Assembly (NCBI GenBank): GCA_965205605.1
Contig: CBDBHE010000007.1
Coordinates: forward strand, 320,001-384,000
Direction: 5' to 3'
DNA: 64,000 nucleotides
Origin: Spirochaetota bacterium
Lineage (GTDB): Bacteria > Spirochaetota > UBA12135 > COTS27 > CBDBHE01
Positions 1 to 31,948 of the stretch are shown here, in pieces (positions within the stretch are counted from its first letter, which is position 1; each line of letters starts with the position of its first letter). Under the pieces are notes generated by a model. That model did not search any database. It saw nothing but the letters and a program-made list of their open reading frames with translations, and was not told the origin of the DNA. The translations under genes and the position numbers were made by a program.

Positions 1-1138
1 GTAAAAATCGACTGCGATTAACTCCCCTTAACCCCTTCTGCGACAACAAGTAATCTTCACTCACGTATAAATTGTCCTTCGTTAAAAAATGAAACGATTG
101 TATCTCTTCCCTTCCTCCCTTCCCTCTCTCTTCTTCCTCTTCCTCTCCATTATTTCCTTTTCCTTTCCCATTCCCATTTCCATTCCCATTCCCATTCCCA
201 GTCCCATTCCCAGTCCCTTTAGAAAATGATTTAACAAATGACCCGCCTCCCGTTTTAGCACCAGAAAAAAAAGTCTTCTTTTCAATGAAGTACTCCCTTA
301 CCCAATGCTCCCTGCCTTTCGGATTGCAATCACACACCAGTTTCGAAACTCGCTCTTGCATCAAGTCACGTCCCCCATGAAGCCGAGTAAGCAACTTCTC
401 AAAATCTAAAAAATCAATGTCCGTAATCTCTCCAATAAAAATATCCGCCCATTCGCTTCCTAGCACCGCATCACGGTGGCGAGAGTTTTCAATCCCTCCC
501 ATCTCAATCACCGAACCATTCCTAAACACAATCTGCCTTTTCGCTTTCTCTTCTCTCCACTCTCCCCCTTCACCCCCCAACATCCGTTTTAAAACCCCAA
601 GCAACGTCTGCTCATATACCGTCTTCATCACACTCGTCACCGTCTTCCTCACCACTAGCCTCCTCGTCTGCGGCATCAAACAACTCCTAGCTACAAAAAA
701 AACACACAATAAAAAAGTCTTGCCAGCTCGACTAGCCCCATACAATAAAAAACTCTTCCCTTCTCCCCAAAGTCGTCCCCACACTTCCTTTTGACGCTCG
801 CTTAAATCTACCATCCGATATTTTAAAATCTCTCTCCCATTACCTCTCTCAAAACCTCTCCCATTACCTCTCTCAAAACTTCGTCCCTCTCCCAAACTTC
901 CTTCCTCCCCTCTTTCTCTTTCTCTTTCTCTTTCTCTTTCTCTTTCTCTTTCTTCCTTCCTTCTTTTGCCTTCAAATCGCTCCATCATCTCGACAAGCTT
1001 AATCAGCCCACGAGGGTCCTCTTTACTCTTCTCCATAAACCCTCTCACCATTTGCTCTACCCCTCTTAGTCCCTCTCCCTTTTCCCCAAACAAGTATTCG
1101 CTAATAAACCCTTCTATCTTTTCTAAAATCCTTCTCAT
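1..1138 (-). CDS. Phage terminase large subunit (PBSX-like), N-terminal ATPase half; runs off the left window edge
   Basis: Manual translation from ATG at 1138 (SD GGGGAGG upstream) is open to base 2. It shows a Q-motif LSERQ, Walker A LYGASRAGKT, RRLVVRKT, FRNGSVIEMGG, Walker B-like GSEWADIFIGE, coupling motif DCNPKGREHW and TKDNLYVSEDY...RSRFL. Not in the ORF track because there is no stop in the window. Confidence 0.85.
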   Translation of the reverse strand, partial: MRRILEKIEGFISEYLFGEKGEGLRGVEQMVRGFMEKSKEDPRGLIKLVEMMERFEGKRRKEERERERERERERERGEEGSLGEGRSFERGNGRGFERGNGREILKYRMVDLSERQKEVWGRLWGEGKSFLLYGASRAGKTFLLCVFFVARSCLMPQTRRLVVRKTVTSVMKTVYEQTLLGVLKRMLGGEGGEWREEKAKRQIVFRNGSVIEMGGIENSRHRDAVLGSEWADIFIGEITDIDFLDFEKLLTRLHGGRDLMQERVSKLVCDCNPKGREHWVREYFIEKKTFFSGAKTGGGSFVKSFSKGTGNGTGNGNGNGNGNGKGKGNNGEEEEEERGKGGREEIQSFHFLTKDNLYVSEDYLLSQKGLRGVNRSRFL

Positions 1139-10057: not shown

Positions 10058-12499
10058 TTAATCTTTACCTAAACGGTCTTTTTTGGTTTCTTTCCCCTCA
10101 GAACTTCTTCTCTCGGAACTCCTTCCTTCAGAGTTTCTTCCTCGATCGGAACTTCTTTTTCCTTCTGAGCTCCACGTTTTAAAGCCTCGTCCCTCGGAAC
10201 TTCCTGTTTTAAATCTTCTTCCTTCAGAACTTCGTCCCTCAGAACTTCTTCTCTCGGAACTCCTTCCTTCAGAGTTTCTTCCTCGATCGGAACTTCTTTT
10301 TCCTTCTGAGCTCCACGTTTTAAAGCCTCGTCCCTCGGAACTTCCTGTTTTAAATCTTCTTCCTTCAGAACTTCGTCCCTCAGAACTTCTTCTCTCGGAA
10401 CTCCTTCCTTCAGAGTTTCTTCCTCGATCGGAACTTCTTTTTCCTTCTGAGCTCCACGTTTTAAAGCCTCGTCCCTCGGAACTTCCTGTTTTAAATCTTC
10501 TTCCTTCAGAACTTCGTCCCTCAGAACTTCTTCTCTCGGAACTCCTTCCTTCAGAGTTTCTTCCTCGATCGGAACTTCTTTTTCCTTCTGAGCTCCACGT
10601 TTTAAAGCCTCGTCCCTCGGAACTTCCTGTTTTAAATCTTCTTCCTTCAGAACTTCGTCCCTCAGAACTTCTTCTCTCGGAACTCCTTCCTTCAGAGTTT
10701 CTTCCTCGATCGGAACTTCTTTTTCCTTCTGAGCTCCACGTTTTAAAGCCTCGTCCCTCGGAACTTCCTGTTTTAAATCTTCTTCCTTCAGAACTTCGTC
10801 CCTCAGAACTTCTTCTCTCGGAACTCCTTCCTTCAGAGTTTCTTCCTCGATCGGAACTTCTTTTTCCTTCTGAGCTCCACGTTTTAAAGCCTCGTCCCTC
10901 GGAACTTCCTGTTTTAAATCTTCTTCCTTCAGAACTTCGTCCCTCAGAACTTCTTCTCTCGGAACTCCTTCCTTCAGAGTTTCTTCCTCGATCGGAACTT
11001 CTTTTTCCTTCTGAGCTCCACGTTTTAAAGCCTCGTCCCTCGGAACTTCCTGTTTTAAATCTTCTTCCTTCAGAACTTCGTCCCTCAGAACTTCTTCTCT
11101 CGGAACTCCTTCCTTCAGAGTTTCTTCCTCGATCGGAACTTCTTTTTCCTTCTGAGCTCCACGTTTTAAAGCCTCGTCCCTCGGAACTTCCTGTTTTAAA
11201 TCTTCTTCCTTCAGAACTTCGTCCCTCAGAACTTCTTCTCTCGGAACTCCTTCCTTCAGAGTTTCTTCCTCGATCGGAACTTCTTTTTCCTTCTGAGCTC
11301 CACGTTTTAAAGCCTCGTCCCTCGGAACTTCCTGTTTTAAATCTTCTTCCTTCAGAACTTCGTCCCTCAGAACTTCTTCTCTCGGAACTCCTTCCTTCAG
11401 AGTTTCTTCCTCGATCGGAACTTCTTTTTCCTTCTGAGCTCCACGTTTTAAAGCCTCGTCCCTCGGAACTTCCTGTTTTAAATCTTCTTCCTTCAGAACT
11501 TCGTCCCTCAGAACTTCTTCTCTCGGAACTCCTTCCTTCAGAGTTTCTTCCTCGATCGGAACTTCTTTTTCCTTCTGAGCTCCACGTTTTAAAGCCTCGT
11601 CCCTCGGAACTTCCTGTTTTAAATCTTCTTCCTTCAGAACTTCGTCCCTCAGAACTTCTTCTCTCGGAACTCCTTCCTTCAGAGTTTCTTCCTCGATCGG
11701 AACTTCTTTTTCCTTCTGAGCTCCACGTTTTAAAGCCTCGTCCCTCGGAACTTCCTGTTTTAAATCTTCTTCCTTCAGAACTTCGTCCCTCAGAACTTCT
11801 TCTCTCGGAACTCCTTCCTTCAGAGTTTCTTCCTCGATCGGAACTTCTTTTTCCTTCTGAGCTCCACGTTTTAAAGCCTCGTCCTTCAAACTCTTTTCCG
11901 CCTAAATCTTTTTCTTCTAAATCTTGTCCTTCTAAATCATCCCGATTTAAATCTTCGTCCCTCAGAACTTCTTCCTTCGGAACTTCTTCCTTCAAAGCTC
12001 CACGTTTTAAATCTTCGTCCCTCAGAACTTCTTCCTTCGGAACTTCTTCCTTCAAAGCTCCACGTTTTAAATCTTCGTCCCTCAGAACTTCTTCCTTCGG
12101 AACTTCTTCCTTCAAAGCTCCACGTTTTAAATCTTCTTCCTTCAGAACTTCTTCCTTCGGAACTTCTTCCTTCAAAGCTCCACGTTTTAAAACCTCGTCC
12201 CTCAGAACTTCTTCCTTCAGAGTTTCTTCCTCGATCGGAACTTCTTCCTTCAAAGCTCCACGTTTTAAATCTTCGTCTCTCAGAACTTCTTCCTTCAGAG
12301 TTTCTTCCTCGATCGGAACTTCTTTTTCCTTCTGAGCTCCACGTTTTAAACCTTCTTTCTTTACTTTCTCTAAGCTTTCTTTAGGTGAGTTTCTGGGGGT
12401 AGATGAATCATCTTTTGAAAAAAAAGAAGAATCCTTTTCACTAGATTCATTTGAAGATTCTCTTGAAAGTTCGTTTGAATCTGCTTTATTAAAGGTCAC
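10058..12499 (-). CDS. Intrinsically disordered repeat protein: acidic repeat block followed by an Arg/Ser/Gly repeat block
   Basis: 813-aa ORF with unique N- and C-termini, ending 6 bp before the dapE start; weak GTG start with no clear SD. Confidence 0.65.
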   Translation of the reverse strand: MTFNKADSNELSRESSNESSEKDSSFFSKDDSSTPRNSPKESLEKVKKEGLKRGAQKEKEVPIEEETLKEEVLRDEDLKRGALKEEVPIEEETLKEEVLRDEVLKRGALKEEVPKEEVLKEEDLKRGALKEEVPKEEVLRDEDLKRGALKEEVPKEEVLRDEDLKRGALKEEVPKEEVLRDEDLNRDDLEGQDLEEKDLGGKEFEGRGFKTWSSEGKRSSDRGRNSEGRSSERRSSEGRSSEGRRFKTGSSEGRGFKTWSSEGKRSSDRGRNSEGRSSERRSSEGRSSEGRRFKTGSSEGRGFKTWSSEGKRSSDRGRNSEGRSSERRSSEGRSSEGRRFKTGSSEGRGFKTWSSEGKRSSDRGRNSEGRSSERRSSEGRSSEGRRFKTGSSEGRGFKTWSSEGKRSSDRGRNSEGRSSERRSSEGRSSEGRRFKTGSSEGRGFKTWSSEGKRSSDRGRNSEGRSSERRSSEGRSSEGRRFKTGSSEGRGFKTWSSEGKRSSDRGRNSEGRSSERRSSEGRSSEGRRFKTGSSEGRGFKTWSSEGKRSSDRGRNSEGRSSERRSSEGRSSEGRRFKTGSSEGRGFKTWSSEGKRSSDRGRNSEGRSSERRSSEGRSSEGRRFKTGSSEGRGFKTWSSEGKRSSDRGRNSEGRSSERRSSEGRSSEGRRFKTGSSEGRGFKTWSSEGKRSSDRGRNSEGRSSERRSSEGRSSEGRRFKTGSSEGRGFKTWSSEGKRSSDRGRNSEGRSSERRSSEGRSSEGRRFKTGSSEGRGFKTWSSEGKRSSDRGRNSEGRSSERRSSEGKETKKDRLGKD
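10095..11885. repeat. 141-bp tandem repeat, ~12.7 apparently identical copies
   Basis: Marker GAGCTCCACG recurs at 10167, 10308 ... 11859 (period 141); encodes a 47-aa unit. Confidence 0.97.
11946..12350. repeat. 60-bp tandem repeat (~4 copies) plus longer variants, built from the same 15-bp subunit as the 141-bp array
   Basis: Sequence lines 11941-12180 repeat with period 60; subunit approximately CTTCTTCCTTCAGAA. Confidence 0.9.
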
Positions 12500-23148: not shown

Positions 23149-23174
23149 AACCAAGGTCTCTTTTTTTACCTAAA

Positions 23175-23448
23175 TCTTGCAGAAGCCCTTTCCAGCGAAT
23201 TTTCGGTTGACGTTGACCACAAGGGTGATTTATTTTGCTTATCTCAACATTCCCGTTCTTTTGGACTGACAGCAGGCTTTCAAATCGATGAATCGGTAGA
23301 CATTTTTGCCACCTTAGAGGGAGGTCTTAGCTTTCTCAACTTGCTTTACCCTGAAGAGACTGTTGTCAAAGTTAATCAAGAAGTTACATTGCAACATCAC
23401 CTAGGGCAGGTTGCTCTTTTAAAATTTGGAGTGGGGTTTCTTTTTTAG
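23175..23448 (+). pseudogene. Degraded 3' fragment paralogous to the beta-barrel gene at 28341-29115
   Basis: Aligns to 28637-28847 and 29050-29115; has small indels and a deletion between ATCAAGAA microhomologies; keeps the LLKFGVGFLF* terminus. Confidence 0.9.
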
Positions 23449-23475
23449 TTTTTTTTAAAAAAAAACACCCATCAC

Positions 23476-23530
23476 TGACCCTCAAATTGACCCTCATTGA
23501 CCCTCAAATTGACCCTCAAATTGACCCTCA
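23476..23530. repeat. ~12-bp tandem repeat (TGACCCTCAAAT) x5
   Basis: Read directly from the sequence. Confidence 0.9.
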
Positions 23531-23973
23531 AAAAGGGGTTTTTAAGGAGCGGCCTTGATAATAATATTCTCTTCTTTTTTTTTGTCTTCGCTCCAAACGT
23601 AATCGATCACCTTATAAGTAGGGTAACTAAAAATAAAAGTTTTTGATACATCAATAAACTTCTCTTTAAATTAAAATCATCTTATCTTGTTTTTTCTTTT
23701 TTTATTCACTTAATTTTCCAAAAAAAACCCCCTTCAACCGCAAAACAATGAAGGTTTGAAACATTCTCCGAAATATCTTCCTAATGCTATTTAATTATTT
23801 AATGCTATTTTTTATGTTTAACCCAGTTGGTCTTAGGTGATAACAAAAAAAAGGGTTGAGTTTTTTCAGGTAAAAAAAAGAAAATGGGTTCACTGGTGAT
23901 AAAAAATGTCATTGAAAAAAAAATAAAACATAAAACATTTCATCTCAATTAATCTTCAAATTGTAAGCGAAAG

Positions 23974-25080
23974 CTAATAAAAAAACACCAAGCCAGCAAA
24001 AATAGATTGGCTAAAGGCATTTTGGTTAAAGGCATTTAAAGCAAAATGGTAAGTCGTTTTTACAGCCAAATGGTCTTTGTAAAAATAGGTGCTAAGCCCT
24101 ACTTTAGCGATGATGCTATCATAAAAACGACCTTCACTTTTACCAAAGAGGTGATTTAAGATTTCTCCACTAAGAGCGTATTGCCAGTTGGCAAGCCGCA
24201 GCGACAAAAGACTCACTCCCCCAAAGAGAACTTCGCTCGAAAAGCCATCCGAATTACTTTCAAGTGTGTTAAAAAACGTTTTCACAAAGACTTCACTAAG
24301 CCACCTTAATTGTTGTTTTTTTGAACGCTTATGTCTAAGCTCAAAAGACAAACTTTGATTGATTTTCGCCTGTGAATTATTCTCTTTTTTCGCATAAAGA
24401 GAATAATGAAACAAGGTCCTCAGTGGCTGAGACCACTTTTGACGAAGGCCTATCTGGGTGAAAATATCAATTTTATTTTCAAGATTGATTAGAGGTTCTA
24501 AAGCTTCAAAAGAACCATCCCCATTAAAAATACCCCCTTTTATCTCAAAAATCGATAGCAGCCTTCTAGCAGAATATAACACCCCAACCCCCCTACCTGG
24601 AGTAAACTCTCGGCTCACTTTTGAATGATAAAGAAAGGCTCTCTCTTCTAAATTAAACGAACGTTCTCTCCCATAAGGAATCTTAAATTGCCCTAGACGA
24701 AGGGAGTGGTCTTTAAAAAACATCAGCTGTAAAAACGCATTTTTTAAATACGCCTTCTCATTGTCTCCATCAATAGGGTCAAAAGAAACATGGTACCTCA
24801 CTTGTTTCCCCGCCAAATCTCCCTTAAGACCAAGCCGCACACTTTGAATGGCAAATCCAGCTAAGTTTTGTTTTTCAATATGTTCAAAAAAATGAAATGA
24901 AAATCGCCCATAGGTTTTTAAAGAAAACTTGTTAGGTTTTTTTGTCTTTTTGTCTTTTTTTTCTAAACCCTCAGTAACATTAAGGTTTTTTTTAATGGGT
25001 GCGTTGTCCTTAGCCACTAGGGCAAAAGAAAAAAAGAAAGCAAAAATAATTAATTTAATTGAGTTTGAGCGTGTTGCCAT
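23974..25080 (-). CDS. Porin, OprO/OprP (phosphate-selective)-like
   Basis: Signal peptide; RLGLKG, LKNAF, LGQFKIPYGRE, GRGVG and GIFNGDG motifs; aromatic C-terminus. Confidence 0.7.
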   Translation of the reverse strand: MATRSNSIKLIIFAFFFSFALVAKDNAPIKKNLNVTEGLEKKDKKTKKPNKFSLKTYGRFSFHFFEHIEKQNLAGFAIQSVRLGLKGDLAGKQVRYHVSFDPIDGDNEKAYLKNAFLQLMFFKDHSLRLGQFKIPYGRERSFNLEERAFLYHSKVSREFTPGRGVGVLYSARRLLSIFEIKGGIFNGDGSFEALEPLINLENKIDIFTQIGLRQKWSQPLRTLFHYSLYAKKENNSQAKINQSLSFELRHKRSKKQQLRWLSEVFVKTFFNTLESNSDGFSSEVLFGGVSLLSLRLANWQYALSGEILNHLFGKSEGRFYDSIIAKVGLSTYFYKDHLAVKTTYHFALNAFNQNAFSQSIFAGLVFFY

Positions 25081-26312
25081 CTTTCTTTAATCCAAGTTTT
25101 AATCCATTGGATTTCATTTTCAAAGTTTCTAGCTTGAGCTTGAGCTTGAGTGACGTTAAAGTATTGTTGTAGATGTTGTTGCCACTTTTCTTCATCTTTT
25201 TTGGCAAGGTCTTCAATCTCAAAAACCCACCGATCGATTTGATTTTGTATTTTTACTAGCTCCCACTCATTTTTAATCAGCTCACGAGCCCTTTGATAAA
25301 GACGATCTCGAGTGATGGGGTTGTCTAAAAATACTTTGAAAAAAAGATTTTTATCTGCAAACAATCTCGGTAAGTTGTCAGGCCTTGAAGAAGTCAAGTT
25401 GCCTTTAGCAGGTCCTCCAAAAGATTGTCCAAAAGAAGCATTAAAATCCCACGGCAAGTACCGCCACTTGCCTCCTTTTTCATGATACAAATAGGCATTC
25501 TTCCAAGCCGAATCACTGGCATGAATCAAACTGGCAAACACCCACCAATCTTCAAAATCAGCCCTCCTAGCCACCTTCTCAAAATGATGAGAAAAAGCTT
25601 CTTTTGACGGTCGGATAAATAAATCCATCAATTTAATCATTTCATCAAAACCCCCGATTGGATTTTTTAAACCCGAAGACTTAATTTCCATCGAAGTTCT
25701 AATTTCATTAATCTCATCCCCATCAGCTCCCTGGTGGCCTATAATTTTAAAAAGCGTCCCTTTAAAAGGATTGAGCCCTTGAGAAGCAAGAAGGGATTCA
25801 TTAACGTGATCAATCGCTGTGTAGAGCCCGTGAAAGTGACCTTGTAAAAATAACTCCACAAAAAAAGTTTCTATCTTAAGGTGGTTTTTCGCATCAAACC
25901 ACCCCCATAATGTAAAAGCAAGACGGCTTCTAATATAAGAAGTGTCATCAAAATTAGACGTTAAAACAAGGTTCCCATCATTAGATAGTTTCCCAAAAGT
26001 ATTTGGAAAACGACGTTTTAAACTCGCAAAGCTTTGTTTTGAAAAACGCAATGTATAACTTTTTTTAGGGTAATTAAAACTAACCGCCCCTCGCTGTTTT
26101 GAATCCACTGAGTACAATTCATCTCCTATTTTTACCATACTCGTTTGGTAGCTTTTACTTTTAGCAGCAGACTGTAAATCTATTTTAAGCACCCTACTAA
26201 GGTCTATCGACTCATTAAAAGGCTCAAAAAAAGCACAACTAGAAAACAACCAACAAAACAACAAAAAAGGTCTGAGAGAAAAAAGAGATAAAAACACTTT
26301 ATTTTTTTTCAT
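25050..26312 (-). CDS. CotH family kinase, lipoprotein
   Basis: Lipobox LFSSC; QRGAVS..YPKKSY, GLYT, D...KNAYLY...W.YLPWDFNASFG. Confidence 0.88.
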   Translation of the reverse strand: MKKNKVFLSLFSLRPFLLFCWLFSSCAFFEPFNESIDLSRVLKIDLQSAAKSKSYQTSMVKIGDELYSVDSKQRGAVSFNYPKKSYTLRFSKQSFASLKRRFPNTFGKLSNDGNLVLTSNFDDTSYIRSRLAFTLWGWFDAKNHLKIETFFVELFLQGHFHGLYTAIDHVNESLLASQGLNPFKGTLFKIIGHQGADGDEINEIRTSMEIKSSGLKNPIGGFDEMIKLMDLFIRPSKEAFSHHFEKVARRADFEDWWVFASLIHASDSAWKNAYLYHEKGGKWRYLPWDFNASFGQSFGGPAKGNLTSSRPDNLPRLFADKNLFFKVFLDNPITRDRLYQRARELIKNEWELVKIQNQIDRWVFEIEDLAKKDEEKWQQHLQQYFNVTQAQAQARNFENEIQWIKTWIKERWQHAQTQLN

Positions 26313-26555
26313 TTAAATCTTTCTTGATAACAGTCTCTCACCATTAATTGTAACATATCTCGTTTTGAAAACAGAGCATGACAGACTTGGATGCCTTGAG
26401 TCAATTCAAATCAAGCGGGCAATCTTAAGCGCCCTCCAAAGAAAATTAACTAAAAAAAGTGACCTCATTCCTTGTAACCTATCCATCATAGACATAAAGT
26501 AAAATGAAGCTTTAATCAGGAGAAGAATCGATTAATTTGCGATAAAAAAATATCA

Positions 26556-27188
26556 TTAAAAGCGACCTTCATCTCTAAAACAAGGATTTAAAGAAGAGAG
26601 AGACTTACAAACATCTGCCCAAGTTTTTCCTTTTTGAAGAGAAACTAAAAACGTCGCTGAAGTGCTATTTTTATCAGCTCGAATCCCCCTAAGCTTTATT
26701 TTAGAAAACAGTTTGACAAACTTAGGGTCTTTTTGGGAGTCATAGGGATTAAACTGATGGTCTCCAAAACAATCTAATAAAAAAGTAGTTTCATCTTCAT
26801 TTTGTTTTAACCATTGATTCATGACCCAAATCACAAAAGGCGAGATAAACGTCATTAAGATTCCTAAGGAAAAATAACCCACCCCACTTGAAAACCCAAT
26901 AATCATCGCAATAAAAATCATCACCAAATCTCTAGAATTAGAAAAATTAGTCCGAAATCTCACCATGGCAATGGTCACAAAAAGACCAATAGCCCTTGCC
27001 ATGTTGTCACCTATCACCACGATAATCACTGAAAAACTCATCGTCAGTAACACCATCGATTGGATGACTTCTGCACTTGGTTTTTTTTCAGAAGCAAAAT
27101 AATACAAAAATGCCAAACAAATCCCTAAAACAAGTGCAACGAGCATGTTGTCAACAAAAACAAACTGGCTATGGGTAAAAAAATCCAT
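26556..27188 (-). CDS. DUF4956 membrane protein
   Basis: IGDNMARAIGL...VRFRT...RDL..IF.A...G...G.G motif; downstream of the VTC gene. Confidence 0.85.
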   Translation of the reverse strand: MDFFTHSQFVFVDNMLVALVLGICLAFLYYFASEKKPSAEVIQSMVLLTMSFSVIIVVIGDNMARAIGLFVTIAMVRFRTNFSNSRDLVMIFIAMIIGFSSGVGYFSLGILMTFISPFVIWVMNQWLKQNEDETTFLLDCFGDHQFNPYDSQKDPKFVKLFSKIKLRGIRADKNSTSATFLVSLQKGKTWADVCKSLSSLNPCFRDEGRF

Positions 27189-27236
27189 TAAAAATAAGTT
27201 TTCTTTATCAATGCTTTAAATGAAATAAAAAAAAAA

Positions 27237-27965
27237 TCATCTTTTTAAAGCGACCCTTTTTGAAGCCATCAAAGCTCTCATCGATCTTTCATATTTAGAA
27301 AATTGCAAACGAGGCAAATGAAAAGCAACCACTAACTGTTTAGCCCAAAAAGGAGCTTGAGCTTCTTTTTTAATTTTAATTTCAAGAATAGCAGCATTTT
27401 TTGAAGGGAGCATTTTATTTTCAAACGAATGCGTTTTGGGAAGGGCTATTTGAGAAGTAAGGGGTTGGTTTAAAATATTTTGATCTAAAGTGACACGTAG
27501 CGTTTTGTCTTGAGAAACCCAGCTACGCCTTAAATAATGAATCAAAATCACCGGCTGAAACGAAGAAGAAGAAGAAAAAAAACGATCCTTTTGATGGATG
27601 GTTAAACTTTTTGCCCAATTTAAAAAATCACTTAAAGAAGTTTTAGGAAATGATGTTAAAACCAGTCTGTCTTTTGCTGACACTTTACCCCATTTTTTCT
27701 TTTTTTCAAGCCAAACTTTCTTTGGCATCTCCTCGAGCAAATTGGTATACATCCTAAGACGCAATTTAAACCGAATCGGATCTCGCCTCCTATGCGCCTG
27801 TAAACAACTAAACAATGCGTCTTCAAAATAAACAGACGTATACCTCACCCCATCTCGACGAGAGTACGAGTCCATCGGTAAATAAGAAGAAAAATACTTG
27901 ATAAAACTTGTCACCATCTCTGGATACACCAAGTATTTTTTTTCAATTCTTTGGTCCATCTTCAT
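27237..27965 (-). CDS. VTC-domain (polyphosphate polymerase-like, CYTH fold) protein
   Basis: RIEKKY, SVYFED, RFKLRLRMY, WLEKK, YLR, RVTLD, ILEIK and FSKY motifs. Confidence 0.88.
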   Translation of the reverse strand: MKMDQRIEKKYLVYPEMVTSFIKYFSSYLPMDSYSRRDGVRYTSVYFEDALFSCLQAHRRRDPIRFKLRLRMYTNLLEEMPKKVWLEKKKKWGKVSAKDRLVLTSFPKTSLSDFLNWAKSLTIHQKDRFFSSSSSFQPVILIHYLRRSWVSQDKTLRVTLDQNILNQPLTSQIALPKTHSFENKMLPSKNAAILEIKIKKEAQAPFWAKQLVVAFHLPRLQFSKYERSMRALMASKRVALKR

Positions 27966-28340
27966 GGTTGCTTTTCCTCTGAAATTTAATAAAAAAAATC
28001 AATCGATTTATTATAGCATTAAGTATTTAAAATAAAAAAATTAATGCTGCCAAGCCTCCGTTTCGATTTCTATCATCAGCTAAACCCAAATGATTTTCGA
28101 CTTGCTCTTACTCTTGTTCTTGTTCTTTCTTTTACAAAATTTAACCCCCATTTTACAATCTTCAAAAAAACACAACGCCCTATTAAAGCAATAAAAGCAT
28201 TTTAAGGCATCATTCAAAATTAAACAAGGCAGGATTTTAAGTGATGGCAATGTCACCGAAGATATTTTTTTTGAGGAAATAAAGAATGTTATAATAAAAA
28301 AATAATTATTTTTAATTAATCATTGCAAAGGAAAAAAACA

Positions 28341-29115
28341 ATGAAAAAAATTTTAATGTTCCTATGGTTTCATTTTTTATGTGTTAGTTTTATTTATAGC
28401 CAAGACTCTAGTGAGAAGAAACATCATTTACTGCTCAAAGCAGGTGGATCGTTTCCAACGGTAGGGACTTTTTCAGATGAAGAAGGGTTAGTAGACCCCT
28501 TAGATATCTTGACGGGATTTAATATTGGCATCCGGTATCAATATTTACTCACCCCAATGAAACCTGAAAAAGCTTATTTTTTGATTAATCTTGGAGCTGA
28601 CTATATCTTAAACCCCGAAGAAAATTCTGAAGATCGTCTTGCAGAAGGCCTTTCCAGCGAATTTTCGGTTGACGTTGACGTTGACCACAAGGGTGATTTT
28701 ACTTATCTCAACATTCCCGTTCTTTTTGGACTGACAGCAGGCTTTCAAATCGATGAATCGGTAGACGTTTTTGCCACCTTAGAAGGAGGACTTAGCTTTT
28801 TTAACTTGCTTTATCCAGAAGAGACTGTTGTCAAAGTTAATCAAGAAAGGTCTTTTATCATTACCCCTAATGAAGTAGAGGGTCTTATAAAGCCGTGTTT
28901 ATCCATCCATAGGGGGAGGCATTAAAATTGCCAAGCGATTTATTGTGTATGGGGAATATTTTACGCTTATCAATTCTGAAGATACGATTGAAAGTGAGGT
29001 TGGGTTTCAATTCTTAGGGGAGATTAGAGAGATTGTTTCAGATCAAGAAGTTGCATTGCAACATAACCTAGGACAGGTTGCTCTTTTAAAATTTGGAGTG
29101 GGGTTTCTTTTTTAG
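28341..29115 (+). pseudogene. Outer-membrane beta-barrel protein, frameshifted by a 4-bp duplication
   Basis: Signal peptide MKKILMF... Removing one ATCC at 28901-28908 joins the 200-aa ORF to IGGGIKIAKRF...LLKFGVGFLF* (stop at 29115; terminal-Phe beta signal). Confidence 0.85.

Positions 29116-30145: not shown

Positions 30146-31948
<1,803 letters not shown>

Follow-up and report, generated by a model that had tools for sequence, protein, structure and literature searches.

In reviews, the synthesis of polyphosphate (polyP) in bacteria is ascribed to PPK enzymes, and VTC is treated as the polymerase of the eukaryotic type. A catalytically impaired yeast VTC complex was obtained by mutation of R264, R266 and E426 of Vtc4 (PMC9911596). 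In bacteria, genes for a VTC-domain protein, a DUF4956 protein and a CotH protein (hereafter, the trio) were described as accessory genes contiguous with the Gram-positive pelDEADAFG loci of streptococci, clostridia and bifidobacteria (Whitfield et al. 2020, PMC7112168). The NELoc-2 locus of Clostridium perfringens also has the trio, and the gene at the DUF4956 position is annotated there as 'tubulin/FtsZ' (PMC2879425). In Streptococcus intermedius (SIR_1592-1594), deletions of cotH and of the DUF4956 gene were described as changing the Pel level and aggregation, with weak phenotypes (PMC12345266). According to the authors of this 2025 study, they did not encounter the trio apart from pel loci. 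Here, a stretch of 64,000 nucleotides (nt) from a Spirochaetota bacterium (contig CBDBHE010000007.1, positions 320,001 to 384,000; hereafter, the window) was analyzed, which carries the trio together with a porin gene.

The four genes lie head to tail on the minus strand of the window and run from 27965 to 23974 in the order VTC, DUF4956, cotH, porin (all coordinates are positions within the window). The original prediction, which had been made from the letters of this DNA, proposed four co-oriented genes whose products span the cell from the cytoplasm to the outer membrane. All four open reading frames (ORFs) were found where they had been placed, their Pfam families were confirmed, and the locations predicted from hydropathy, signals and the C-terminus agreed with the proposed spread. 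The window and two of the loci surveyed below (L001 and L018) are counterexamples to the restriction of the trio to pel loci. The cluster is regarded as a diderm variant, with an overlapping porin gene and without glycan genes, of the VTC-DUF4956-CotH module, which is known but unexplained. The idea of a trans-envelope polyP system appears plausible, and it was somewhat strengthened for the VTC-DUF4956 core. The accompanying statement that such neighborhoods lacked functional characterization was slightly outdated in view of the S. intermedius knockouts; it stood as far as biochemistry is concerned, none of which was found in the literature searched.

The VTC-domain gene (27237..27965, minus strand) encodes a protein of 242 amino acids (aa) that matched Pfam VTC (PF09359) at E 8.8e-34 over nearly its full length (residues 5-232 on model positions 1-234 of 235). 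Hydrophobic segments are absent from the protein, its composition is strongly basic (47 K+R vs 20 D+E, net charge of approximately +27), and its predicted location is cytoplasmic. A HMMER scan of 1.84 billion representative proteins gave 1172 relatives at E<=0.001. Most of the best 150 of these 1172 were about as long as a single free-standing domain, and identity to the window protein reached approximately 31% in the best relatives of full length. No longer fused forms were found in the range covered, 539-2000 aa; a VTC+DUF4956 fusion of approximately 460 aa would lie outside this range. The proteins of the cluster are very divergent: a word-based search with the VTC protein returned the protein itself and one 140-aa fragment at 73% identity, with no others.

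In an alignment of 73 VTC sequences, the window protein held 10 of the 10 invariant and 16 of the 16 nearly invariant residues. Single-sequence searches of the PDB with the VTC and CotH proteins gave matches at chance level only, and profiles were needed. The 73-sequence profile matched Vtc4 (3g3q) best, with E 2.8e-30, followed by Vtc2/Vtc3 (1e-17 to 1e-18), and the remaining rows at E<=1 were three chains of one DUF3472 protein (E 0.13-0.15). At this threshold, no tunnel enzyme besides the Vtc proteins was matched, and no hydrolase or cyclase. In the profile alignment to 3g3q (numbering offset of 185, verified at R264/R266/E426), R69, R71 and E195 of the window protein fell on R264, R266 and E426 of Vtc4, the residues of the impaired yeast complex. 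In the same alignment, K10 and K224 fell on K200 and K458, which we take to be catalytic tunnel residues. Thus, the VTC identity proposed originally was borne out and could be narrowed to a Vtc4-like type. Judged by its residues, the protein looks like a catalytically intact Vtc4-type enzyme and may be considered a candidate polyP polymerase.

An alternative is that the VTC protein is a signaling or hydrolytic tunnel enzyme, not a polymerase, and that it is a triphosphatase or produces a small phospho-messenger, by which DUF4956 and the envelope genes farther downstream would be controlled. The classic tunnel-enzyme motif is ExExK, and the bacterial VTC family has an invariant Glu (E8) at a position where Vtc4 has Thr, which is nearer to this motif. 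Two-component systems flank 3 of the 17 surveyed loci. The tunnel-enzyme superfamily is also described as including hydrolases and cyclases (PMC4641920). However, the profile matched Vtc4 far better than any other PDB entry and drew no hydrolase or cyclase of the superfamily at E<=1, and this alternative is considered highly improbable.

The window protein thus shares with the yeast VTC complex the family of the catalytic domain and the key tunnel residues. Another common feature is that the enzyme is paired with a multi-pass membrane protein, and the logic proposed for both is synthesis coupled to membrane transit. In contrast to the yeast complex, neither an SPX sensor domain nor a Vtc1-type (DUF202) transmembrane domain was found in the 242-aa protein by Pfam and hydropathy. 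The membrane partner in the window is a separate, unrelated DUF4956 protein, and the target would be the periplasm or the exterior, whereas in yeast it is the vacuole. In the sequence library, one 480-aa protein (P0098) resembles Vtc4 in architecture: behind its VTC domain comes a hydrophobic C-terminus of several helices, which was unrecognized by the local DUF4956 hidden Markov model (HMM).

The DUF4956 gene (26556..27188, minus strand) follows the VTC gene after a gap of 48 nt. It encodes a 210-aa protein that matched Pfam PF16316 at E 2.5e-10 (40.8 bits vs a cutoff of 30.6), and in a protein-language-model look-up (Atlas), 28 of its 30 nearest clusters were DUF4956. Hydropathy indicated approximately five hydrophobic helices. 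R77 is invariant and lies within an R-F/Y-R motif. In an AlphaFold2 (AF2) model built from 9 sequences, which was of low confidence (predicted local distance difference test, pLDDT, 62.6), the C-terminal domain had a beta-alpha-beta-beta-alpha, ACT-like arrangement. A Foldseek comparison of this model with the PDB gave 0 matches at E<=0.001; the weak look-alikes were ACT or MgtC C-terminal domains, among them Mycobacterium tuberculosis MgtC 2lqj at E 0.11. No solved structure was matched by the DUF4956 profile among PDB sequences. The DUF4956 protein of the Gram-positive pel trio is described as an MgtC-like transmembrane domain plus an ACT domain (PMC7112168, PMC12345266). Prediction of a VTC and DUF4956 complex scored 0.00 in both runs, in which the controls did not fold, and is evidence neither way. 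The protein is taken as the putative inner-membrane partner or conduit of VTC.

The pairing of these two genes was examined in a survey of 17 VTC loci outside the window: 12 from a genome collection, found with one peptide pattern, RFKLRLR[TMQ]Y, taken from a 4-sequence alignment, and 5 from a plasmid collection. The window VTC had no match in the plasmid collection; other VTC queries gave 5 and 6 records, and an Enterococcus record (H5/H10) was left out of the survey. The ORFs were annotated with Pfam (181 ORFs) and with local HMMs. Several loci were near-duplicates (L007/8/9, L011/12, L003/10 and L001/2), and therefore the independent sample is smaller than 17. DUF4956 adjoined VTC in 13 of the 15 loci with enough flank to judge. 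Eight of these 13 neighbors were recognized by Pfam or annotation, 3 by strong local HMM matches and 2 by weak ones (L011 and L012; E ~1e-10). The VTC stop and the DUF4956 start were at most 13 nt apart or overlapped in 10 of the 12 related loci measured, compared with 48 nt in the window. It may be concluded that the VTC-DUF4956 pair is the conserved core.

The third partner of this core varied. CotH stood next to it in 4 of the 17 loci (L001, L013, L014 and L018), Cthe_2159 lipoproteins in another 4 (L007, L008, L009 and L015, from two lineages), HlyD-type periplasmic adaptors in 3 (L004, Verrucomicrobiota; L005, Acidobacteriota; L006, Planctomycetota) and two-component systems in 3 (L008, L015 and L016). 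An N-terminal hydrophobic anchor was seen in CotH (L001, L014), lipoprotein signals in Cthe_2159 proteins (L008, L015) and one transmembrane anchor in the HlyD-type adaptors of all three loci. The recurrent third partners are thus predicted to be extracytoplasmic where this could be checked.

The loci with HlyD were the most informative for export. In L005, an OEP (TolC-like) gene, VTC, DUF4956, HlyD and a large outer-membrane barrel follow one another on one strand, with gaps of 1-3 nt between VTC, DUF4956 and HlyD and of approximately 130-170 nt to the OEP gene and to the large barrel; L004 and L006 have the order VTC-DUF4956-HlyD. No ABC, RND or MFS pump was found among the ORFs scanned in these three loci. 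Therefore, with an HlyD neighbor and no pump, DUF4956 stands at the place that a translocase of the inner membrane would take in a tripartite exporter. The VTCs of the three HlyD-linked loci formed one clade in a quick tree (SH-aLRT, a branch-support test, 99). The export role that had been proposed gained from these adaptors in three diderm phyla, one of them with OEP, and the survey favors synthesis coupled to export. The window differs from such exporters: HlyD and OEP genes were absent from its flanks, as judged by a Pfam scan of 46 window ORFs (11 + 35; ORFs shorter than 150 aa outside 19-33 kb were left out), and a general porin-type barrel is present instead, if it belongs to the system.

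The cotH gene of the window (25050..26312, minus strand) encodes a 420-aa protein that matched Pfam CotH (PF08757) at E 3.8e-43. A profile of 4 CotH sequences matched Spore coat protein H (5jd9) at E 2.3e-23, and the single-sequence PDB search with the window protein missed this entry. The catalytic motif, D267-x4-N272 plus W288-D289, corresponds to the D-x4-N...W-D of 5jd9, and the spacing between the two Asp residues is 22 in the window protein vs 23 in 5jd9 and in Bacillus subtilis (251-228). Both corresponding B. subtilis mutants, D228Q and D251A, were described as inactive (PMC7821199). By motif and spacing, and not by structure, D267 and D289 would be the equivalents of B. subtilis D228 and D251. 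The window protein has one N-terminal hydrophobic segment, and its K2, K3 and K5 together with Cys26 in an L-F-S-S-C context presumably fit the lipobox rule. It is predicted to be a lipoprotein-type, extracytoplasmic protein with a kinase fold. The Bacillus CotH Ser kinase (PDB 5jd9/5jda) is of the same Pfam family and has the same catalytic Asp/Asn/Asp motif. However, it works with adenosine triphosphate (ATP) in the mother-cell cytoplasm on the coat proteins CotB and CotG, whereas the window CotH carries an export signal of the lipoprotein type and lacks a sporulation setting.

Where CotH accompanied the core, the gene order differed: DUF-CotH-VTC in L001, CotH-VTC-DUF in L013, and VTC-DUF-CotH in L014, L018 and the window. 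Because adjacency was kept despite this shuffling, functional coupling of the trio was argued. A local HMM of 3 CotH sequences missed the CotH of L014, which Pfam detected, and therefore CotH negatives from this HMM are weak. The recurrence of VTC-DUF4956-CotH neighborhoods in bacteria, which had been asserted originally, held for the VTC-DUF4956 part, but CotH was found only in the 4 loci named. With CotH in only 4 of the 17 loci, it cannot be a general rule that VTC exists to fuel CotH, and this part of the original prediction was weakened: CotH is one of several alternative partners. It is viewed as an optional consumer or handler of the product and not as the reason for the module to exist.

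Two side observations concern CotH loci. The contigs of L001 (5769-10075) and L002 (9758-11212), both from metagenome-assembled genomes, have DNA identity of 84-88% on both sides and encode sister VTC proteins. DUF4956 and CotH lie upstream of VTC in L001 and VTC stands alone in L002, which indicates a recent gain or loss of both partners; the titles of the two contigs name different phyla (Rifleibacteriota and Methylomirabilis), and an error of binning or labeling may be suspected. On a plasmid of Hymenobacter volaticus (L017:6867-10296), a CotH with a type IX secretion system (T9SS) tail is divergent from a metallophosphoesterase that is likewise T9SS-tailed, and the two could be a secreted kinase/phosphoesterase pair.

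The known company of the trio raises the question of a glycan. The trio could be an accessory module of exopolysaccharide synthesis that acts on an exported glycan as a modifier or regulator, as is suspected of the copies linked to pel; the polymer or its synthase machinery might, for instance, be phosphorylated. In the window, this module would have moved away from the glycan genes; the porin would then be an unrelated passenger or the outer-membrane route of the glycan or of phosphate. The contiguity with pelDEADAFG and the Pel and aggregation changes of the S. intermedius cotH and DUF4956 deletions, both cited above, agree with this. In the survey, L013 lies inside a cluster of glycosyltransferase, acyltransferase and pyruvyl-transferase genes, L014 has a GT2 gene upstream, and L018 has a chitin-synthase-like GT2 gene downstream. 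A 718-aa library protein (P0102) is a membrane GT2 glycosyltransferase fused to a C-terminal VTC domain. On the other side, the scan of 46 window ORFs showed no glycosyltransferase, pel or pel-like gene, L001 is likewise without glycan genes, and glycosyltransferases are also missing where the partner is HlyD, Cthe_2159 or a two-component system. On balance, the exopolysaccharide explanation is rather unlikely for the window.

Compared with the Gram-positive pel trio, the window has the same three families side by side, and CotH is predicted to be secreted in both. The differences are the lack of pel and glycan genes nearby, the diderm host, the outer-membrane porin gene overlapping cotH, and the absence of the accompanying DUF4832 or glycoside hydrolase genes. 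On a plasmid of Planococcus maritimus (L018:4470-12824), the genes VTC, DUF4956, CotH, an unknown of 689 aa, a HEAT-repeat protein and the chitin-synthase-like GT2 are arranged as in the published list for C. perfringens NELoc-2, and they may be part of a larger cluster that is conserved in Firmicutes.

The porin gene (23974..25080, minus strand) encodes a 368-aa protein that matched Pfam Porin_O_P (PF07396) at E 4.8e-9 (36.4 bits vs a cutoff of 20.9). This match is partial, covering residues 69-170 on model positions 20-129 of 370. In the Atlas look-up, 21 of the 30 nearest clusters were Porin_O_P. The protein has one N-terminal hydrophobic segment with a signal peptide start (MATRSNSIKLIIFAFFFSFALVA|KD), 17 amphipathic segments and a C-terminus, ...FAGLVFFY, that resembles the outer-membrane beta-signal. 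The mature N-terminus is rich in Lys (10 K in residues 25-56), which is not the defining ladder of OprO/OprP. A word-based homologue search returned only the protein itself. Among PDB sequences, no OprP/OprO match was obtained at E<=10, so that the arginine ladder and the lysine cluster could not be aligned. A single-sequence AF2 model was mostly helical (pLDDT 35.8) and unusable.

OprO, of the Porin_O_P family, is reported to prefer pyro- and polyphosphate. The window porin shares with Pseudomonas OprP/OprO the family match above the gathering score, the signal peptide and the beta-signal-like C-terminus. It differs in that only the N-terminal third matches the model, with no alignment obtained, and in that no pst or pho genes were seen near it among the 46 ORFs. 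A phosphate role for this porin is unsupported, and its link to the system rests on the cotH overlap and the family name only.

Alternatively, the barrel might be the partner of CotH and not a phosphate pore, with a lipoprotein-barrel complex anchoring or displaying CotH at the outer membrane, as is the case for other pairs of a lipoprotein and a barrel. The overlap of the two genes suggests matched stoichiometry, the Porin_O_P match covers only approximately 100 of the 368 residues, and the ladder residues of OprP could not be placed. Nevertheless, most of the nearest Atlas clusters were Porin_O_P, no such barrel was found at the other CotH loci examined, and approximately 16 strands would be small for handling a 45-kDa protein. 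This possibility is therefore thought to be very unlikely.

The transcription of the cluster was considered from its spacing. The cotH stop codon (25050-25052) lies beyond the porin ATG (25080), and the resulting overlap is 31 nt; the overlap had been noted originally. Therefore, cotH and porin would be co-transcribed. The DUF4956 and cotH genes are separated by a spacer of 243 nt (26313..26555, minus strand) that contains a weak terminator-like hairpin (26434-26417) and an extended -10 promoter-like motif, TGTTACAAT (26347-26355, minus strand), 35 nt upstream of the cotH ATG. A second such motif, TGCTATAAT (28010..28018, minus strand), lies 45 nt upstream of the VTC start; both are matches to the consensus only. 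Folding of the spacer was no better than that of shuffled sequences (z = +0.75), and a search of the whole 64-kb window with Rfam, this spacer included, gave no family at the gathering score.

The consensus TGNTAYAAT occurred 8 times in the window compared with 3.65 expected, and 8 was reached in 6 of 100 shuffles. Four of the 8 motifs were located 28-76 nt upstream of starts, namely those of rplM, cotH, VTC and a 200-aa ORF at 28323-28925. The host may use extended -10 promoters. A standard sigma-70 -35/-10 scan of the window was uninformative (18 sites vs 13.4 expected). Because of the 243-nt gap and the promoter-like motif ahead of cotH, two transcription units, VTC-DUF4956 and cotH-porin, are predicted to be as likely as one, with read-through possible. 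The four genes had been called an operon; co-orientation and the cotH/porin overlap agree with this, but a single operon of all four appears doubtful from the layout.

Taken together, the findings lead to a tentative reading whose probability is put somewhat short of even: the cluster would be an envelope module of two adjacent units in which polyP is made inside and passed out. In the first unit, the cytoplasmic Vtc4-like tunnel enzyme would make polyP or a short oligophosphate from ATP, and the multi-pass DUF4956 protein would take it over and convey it through the inner membrane. In function, this unit would be the prokaryotic analogue of the synthase-translocase that yeast has in VTC, but its membrane part would be unrelated. 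In the second unit, the lipoprotein-type CotH would work at a periplasmic or outer-membrane site. Its task would be to phosphorylate an envelope protein or glycan with the exported phosphoanhydride as donor or, alternatively, to bind and process the polymer. The Porin_O_P barrel would let phosphate, pyrophosphate or oligophosphate through the outer membrane. Polymerase activity, export by DUF4956, the donor and substrate of CotH, and the selectivity and membership of the porin are all putative elements of this scheme.

A bolder version is distinctly unlikely. It holds that the cluster is a bacterial VTC-type polyP synthase-translocase, in which the Vtc4-like enzyme docks on DUF4956 to extrude polyP, and whose exported polyP feeds a periplasmic CotH as donor or substrate and exits by a dedicated oligophosphate porin. 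This would amount to ATP-independent extracytoplasmic phosphorylation and to a counterpart, possibly the ancestor, of the eukaryotic VTC.

A number of observations weigh against the two-unit export module. As to the enzyme, no biochemical activity of bacterial VTC-domain proteins was found in the literature searched, hydrolysis could equally be the activity of a tunnel enzyme that bears such residues, and for deletion of the S. intermedius VTC gene (SIR_1593), unlike those of cotH and the DUF4956 gene, no change of Pel or aggregation was reported (PMC12345266). As to the membrane part, DUF4956 has no similarity to the yeast VTC channel, and relatives of the window protein matched MgtC weakly (E 7.3e-5, 0.013, 0.034 and 2.2e-5), all below the threshold (14.9-25.2 bits vs a cutoff of 31.4). 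MgtC is known as a regulator and not as a channel. The window protein itself had no MgtC Pfam match at E<=0.01, and MgtC, unlike DUF4956, is not known to have a VTC enzyme as partner; the resemblance consists of these weak matches and of the C-terminal domain that is weakly like 2lqj. As to the neighborhoods, the survey was small and biased, being based on one peptide pattern and a plasmid collection, and L002 and L003 have VTC without DUF4956. CotH is adjacent in less than a quarter of the VTC loci, and in the quick tree, which resolved poorly, the window VTC stood apart from the other CotH-linked VTCs. Co-occurrence of all four genes was not recovered: a Porin_O_P relative was found in 0 of 16 loci by phmmer and in none of the 181 ORFs by Pfam. 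The Hymenobacter CotH (L017) is predicted to be secreted, and no VTC or DUF4956 gene lies within 9 kb of it; therefore, an extracytoplasmic CotH need not have a co-encoded VTC. Finally, the 243-nt gap with its promoter-like motif splits VTC-DUF4956 from cotH-porin.

Several of these points would suit the explanation that the two pairs are unrelated neighbors. VTC-DUF4956 would then serve cytoplasm-facing phosphate or energy homeostasis, with DUF4956 as an MgtC-like regulator or anchor and the polyP remaining intracellular, and cotH-porin would be a separate envelope pair with its own promoter. The gap and motif ahead of cotH, the MgtC matches and ACT-like C-terminal fold, the 13 of 17 VTC loci without CotH and the CotH without VTC in L017 are in line with such a separation. 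However, CotH was found beside VTC-DUF4956 in several phyla and in shuffled order (L001, L013, L014, L018 and the window), which would hardly occur by chance, and, given HlyD and OEP partners in three phyla, traffic across the envelope is implied. Unrelated neighbors are accordingly considered rather unlikely.

The surroundings of the cluster are ordinary. The host DNA is low in GC, the GC content of the cluster is the same as that of the flanks, and the immediate flanks carry the housekeeping genes thiC, prephenate dehydrogenase, uracil-DNA glycosylase and haem O synthase. Farther away, nqr genes, htpG, ppc and an OmpA-family gene were found, a gene set consistent with a diderm host. No ppk, ppx or pst family and no pho or sporulation genes were present among the 46 scanned ORFs. 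None of the five proteins (the four cluster proteins and the 200-aa ORF product) was assigned to an NCBIfam family, and PADLOC gave no match for them; therefore, nothing indicated a defense system.

The 200-aa ORF (28323-28925, plus strand) is divergent from the cluster, with an extended -10 motif 28 nt upstream. Its product is acidic, has a signal peptide and had no Pfam match either; a small protein of the outer membrane or periplasm is one possibility. The uracil-DNA glycosylase and porin genes converge on a stretch of 825 nt (23149-23973) in which no ORF of at least 80 aa was present, the only one having 49 aa, and in which Rfam matched nothing. A hairpin followed by a T-run, at approximately 23720-23770 of the minus strand, resembles a terminator of the porin transcript. 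The thiC gene (30146-31933) was not accompanied by a thiamine pyrophosphate riboswitch at the Rfam gathering score in the 64 kb. At the window start, a cut ORF (2-1138, minus strand) matched Terminase_3, the phage terminase large subunit, at E 3e-9, and a prophage or remnant may sit at this edge. At 10058-12499, three long ORFs (813, 606 and 750 aa) overlap across frames and strands, the 813-aa ORF having no Pfam family; this region may be compositionally odd or repetitive.

If it is true that VTC-DUF4956 makes and exports polyP, this would explain how proteins with a kinase fold, such as CotH, can function beyond the cytoplasm despite the scarcity of ATP there. It would also give a function to the accessory genes of the Pel biofilm loci in streptococci and clostridia, would provide a route for extracellular polyP, and would be relevant to how the eukaryotic VTC complex arose. 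Natural test cases for this would be the diderm variants because the path across the envelope is spelled out in them, being marked by the porin in the window and by the HlyD and TolC-like partners in Acidobacteriota, Planctomycetota and Verrucomicrobiota.

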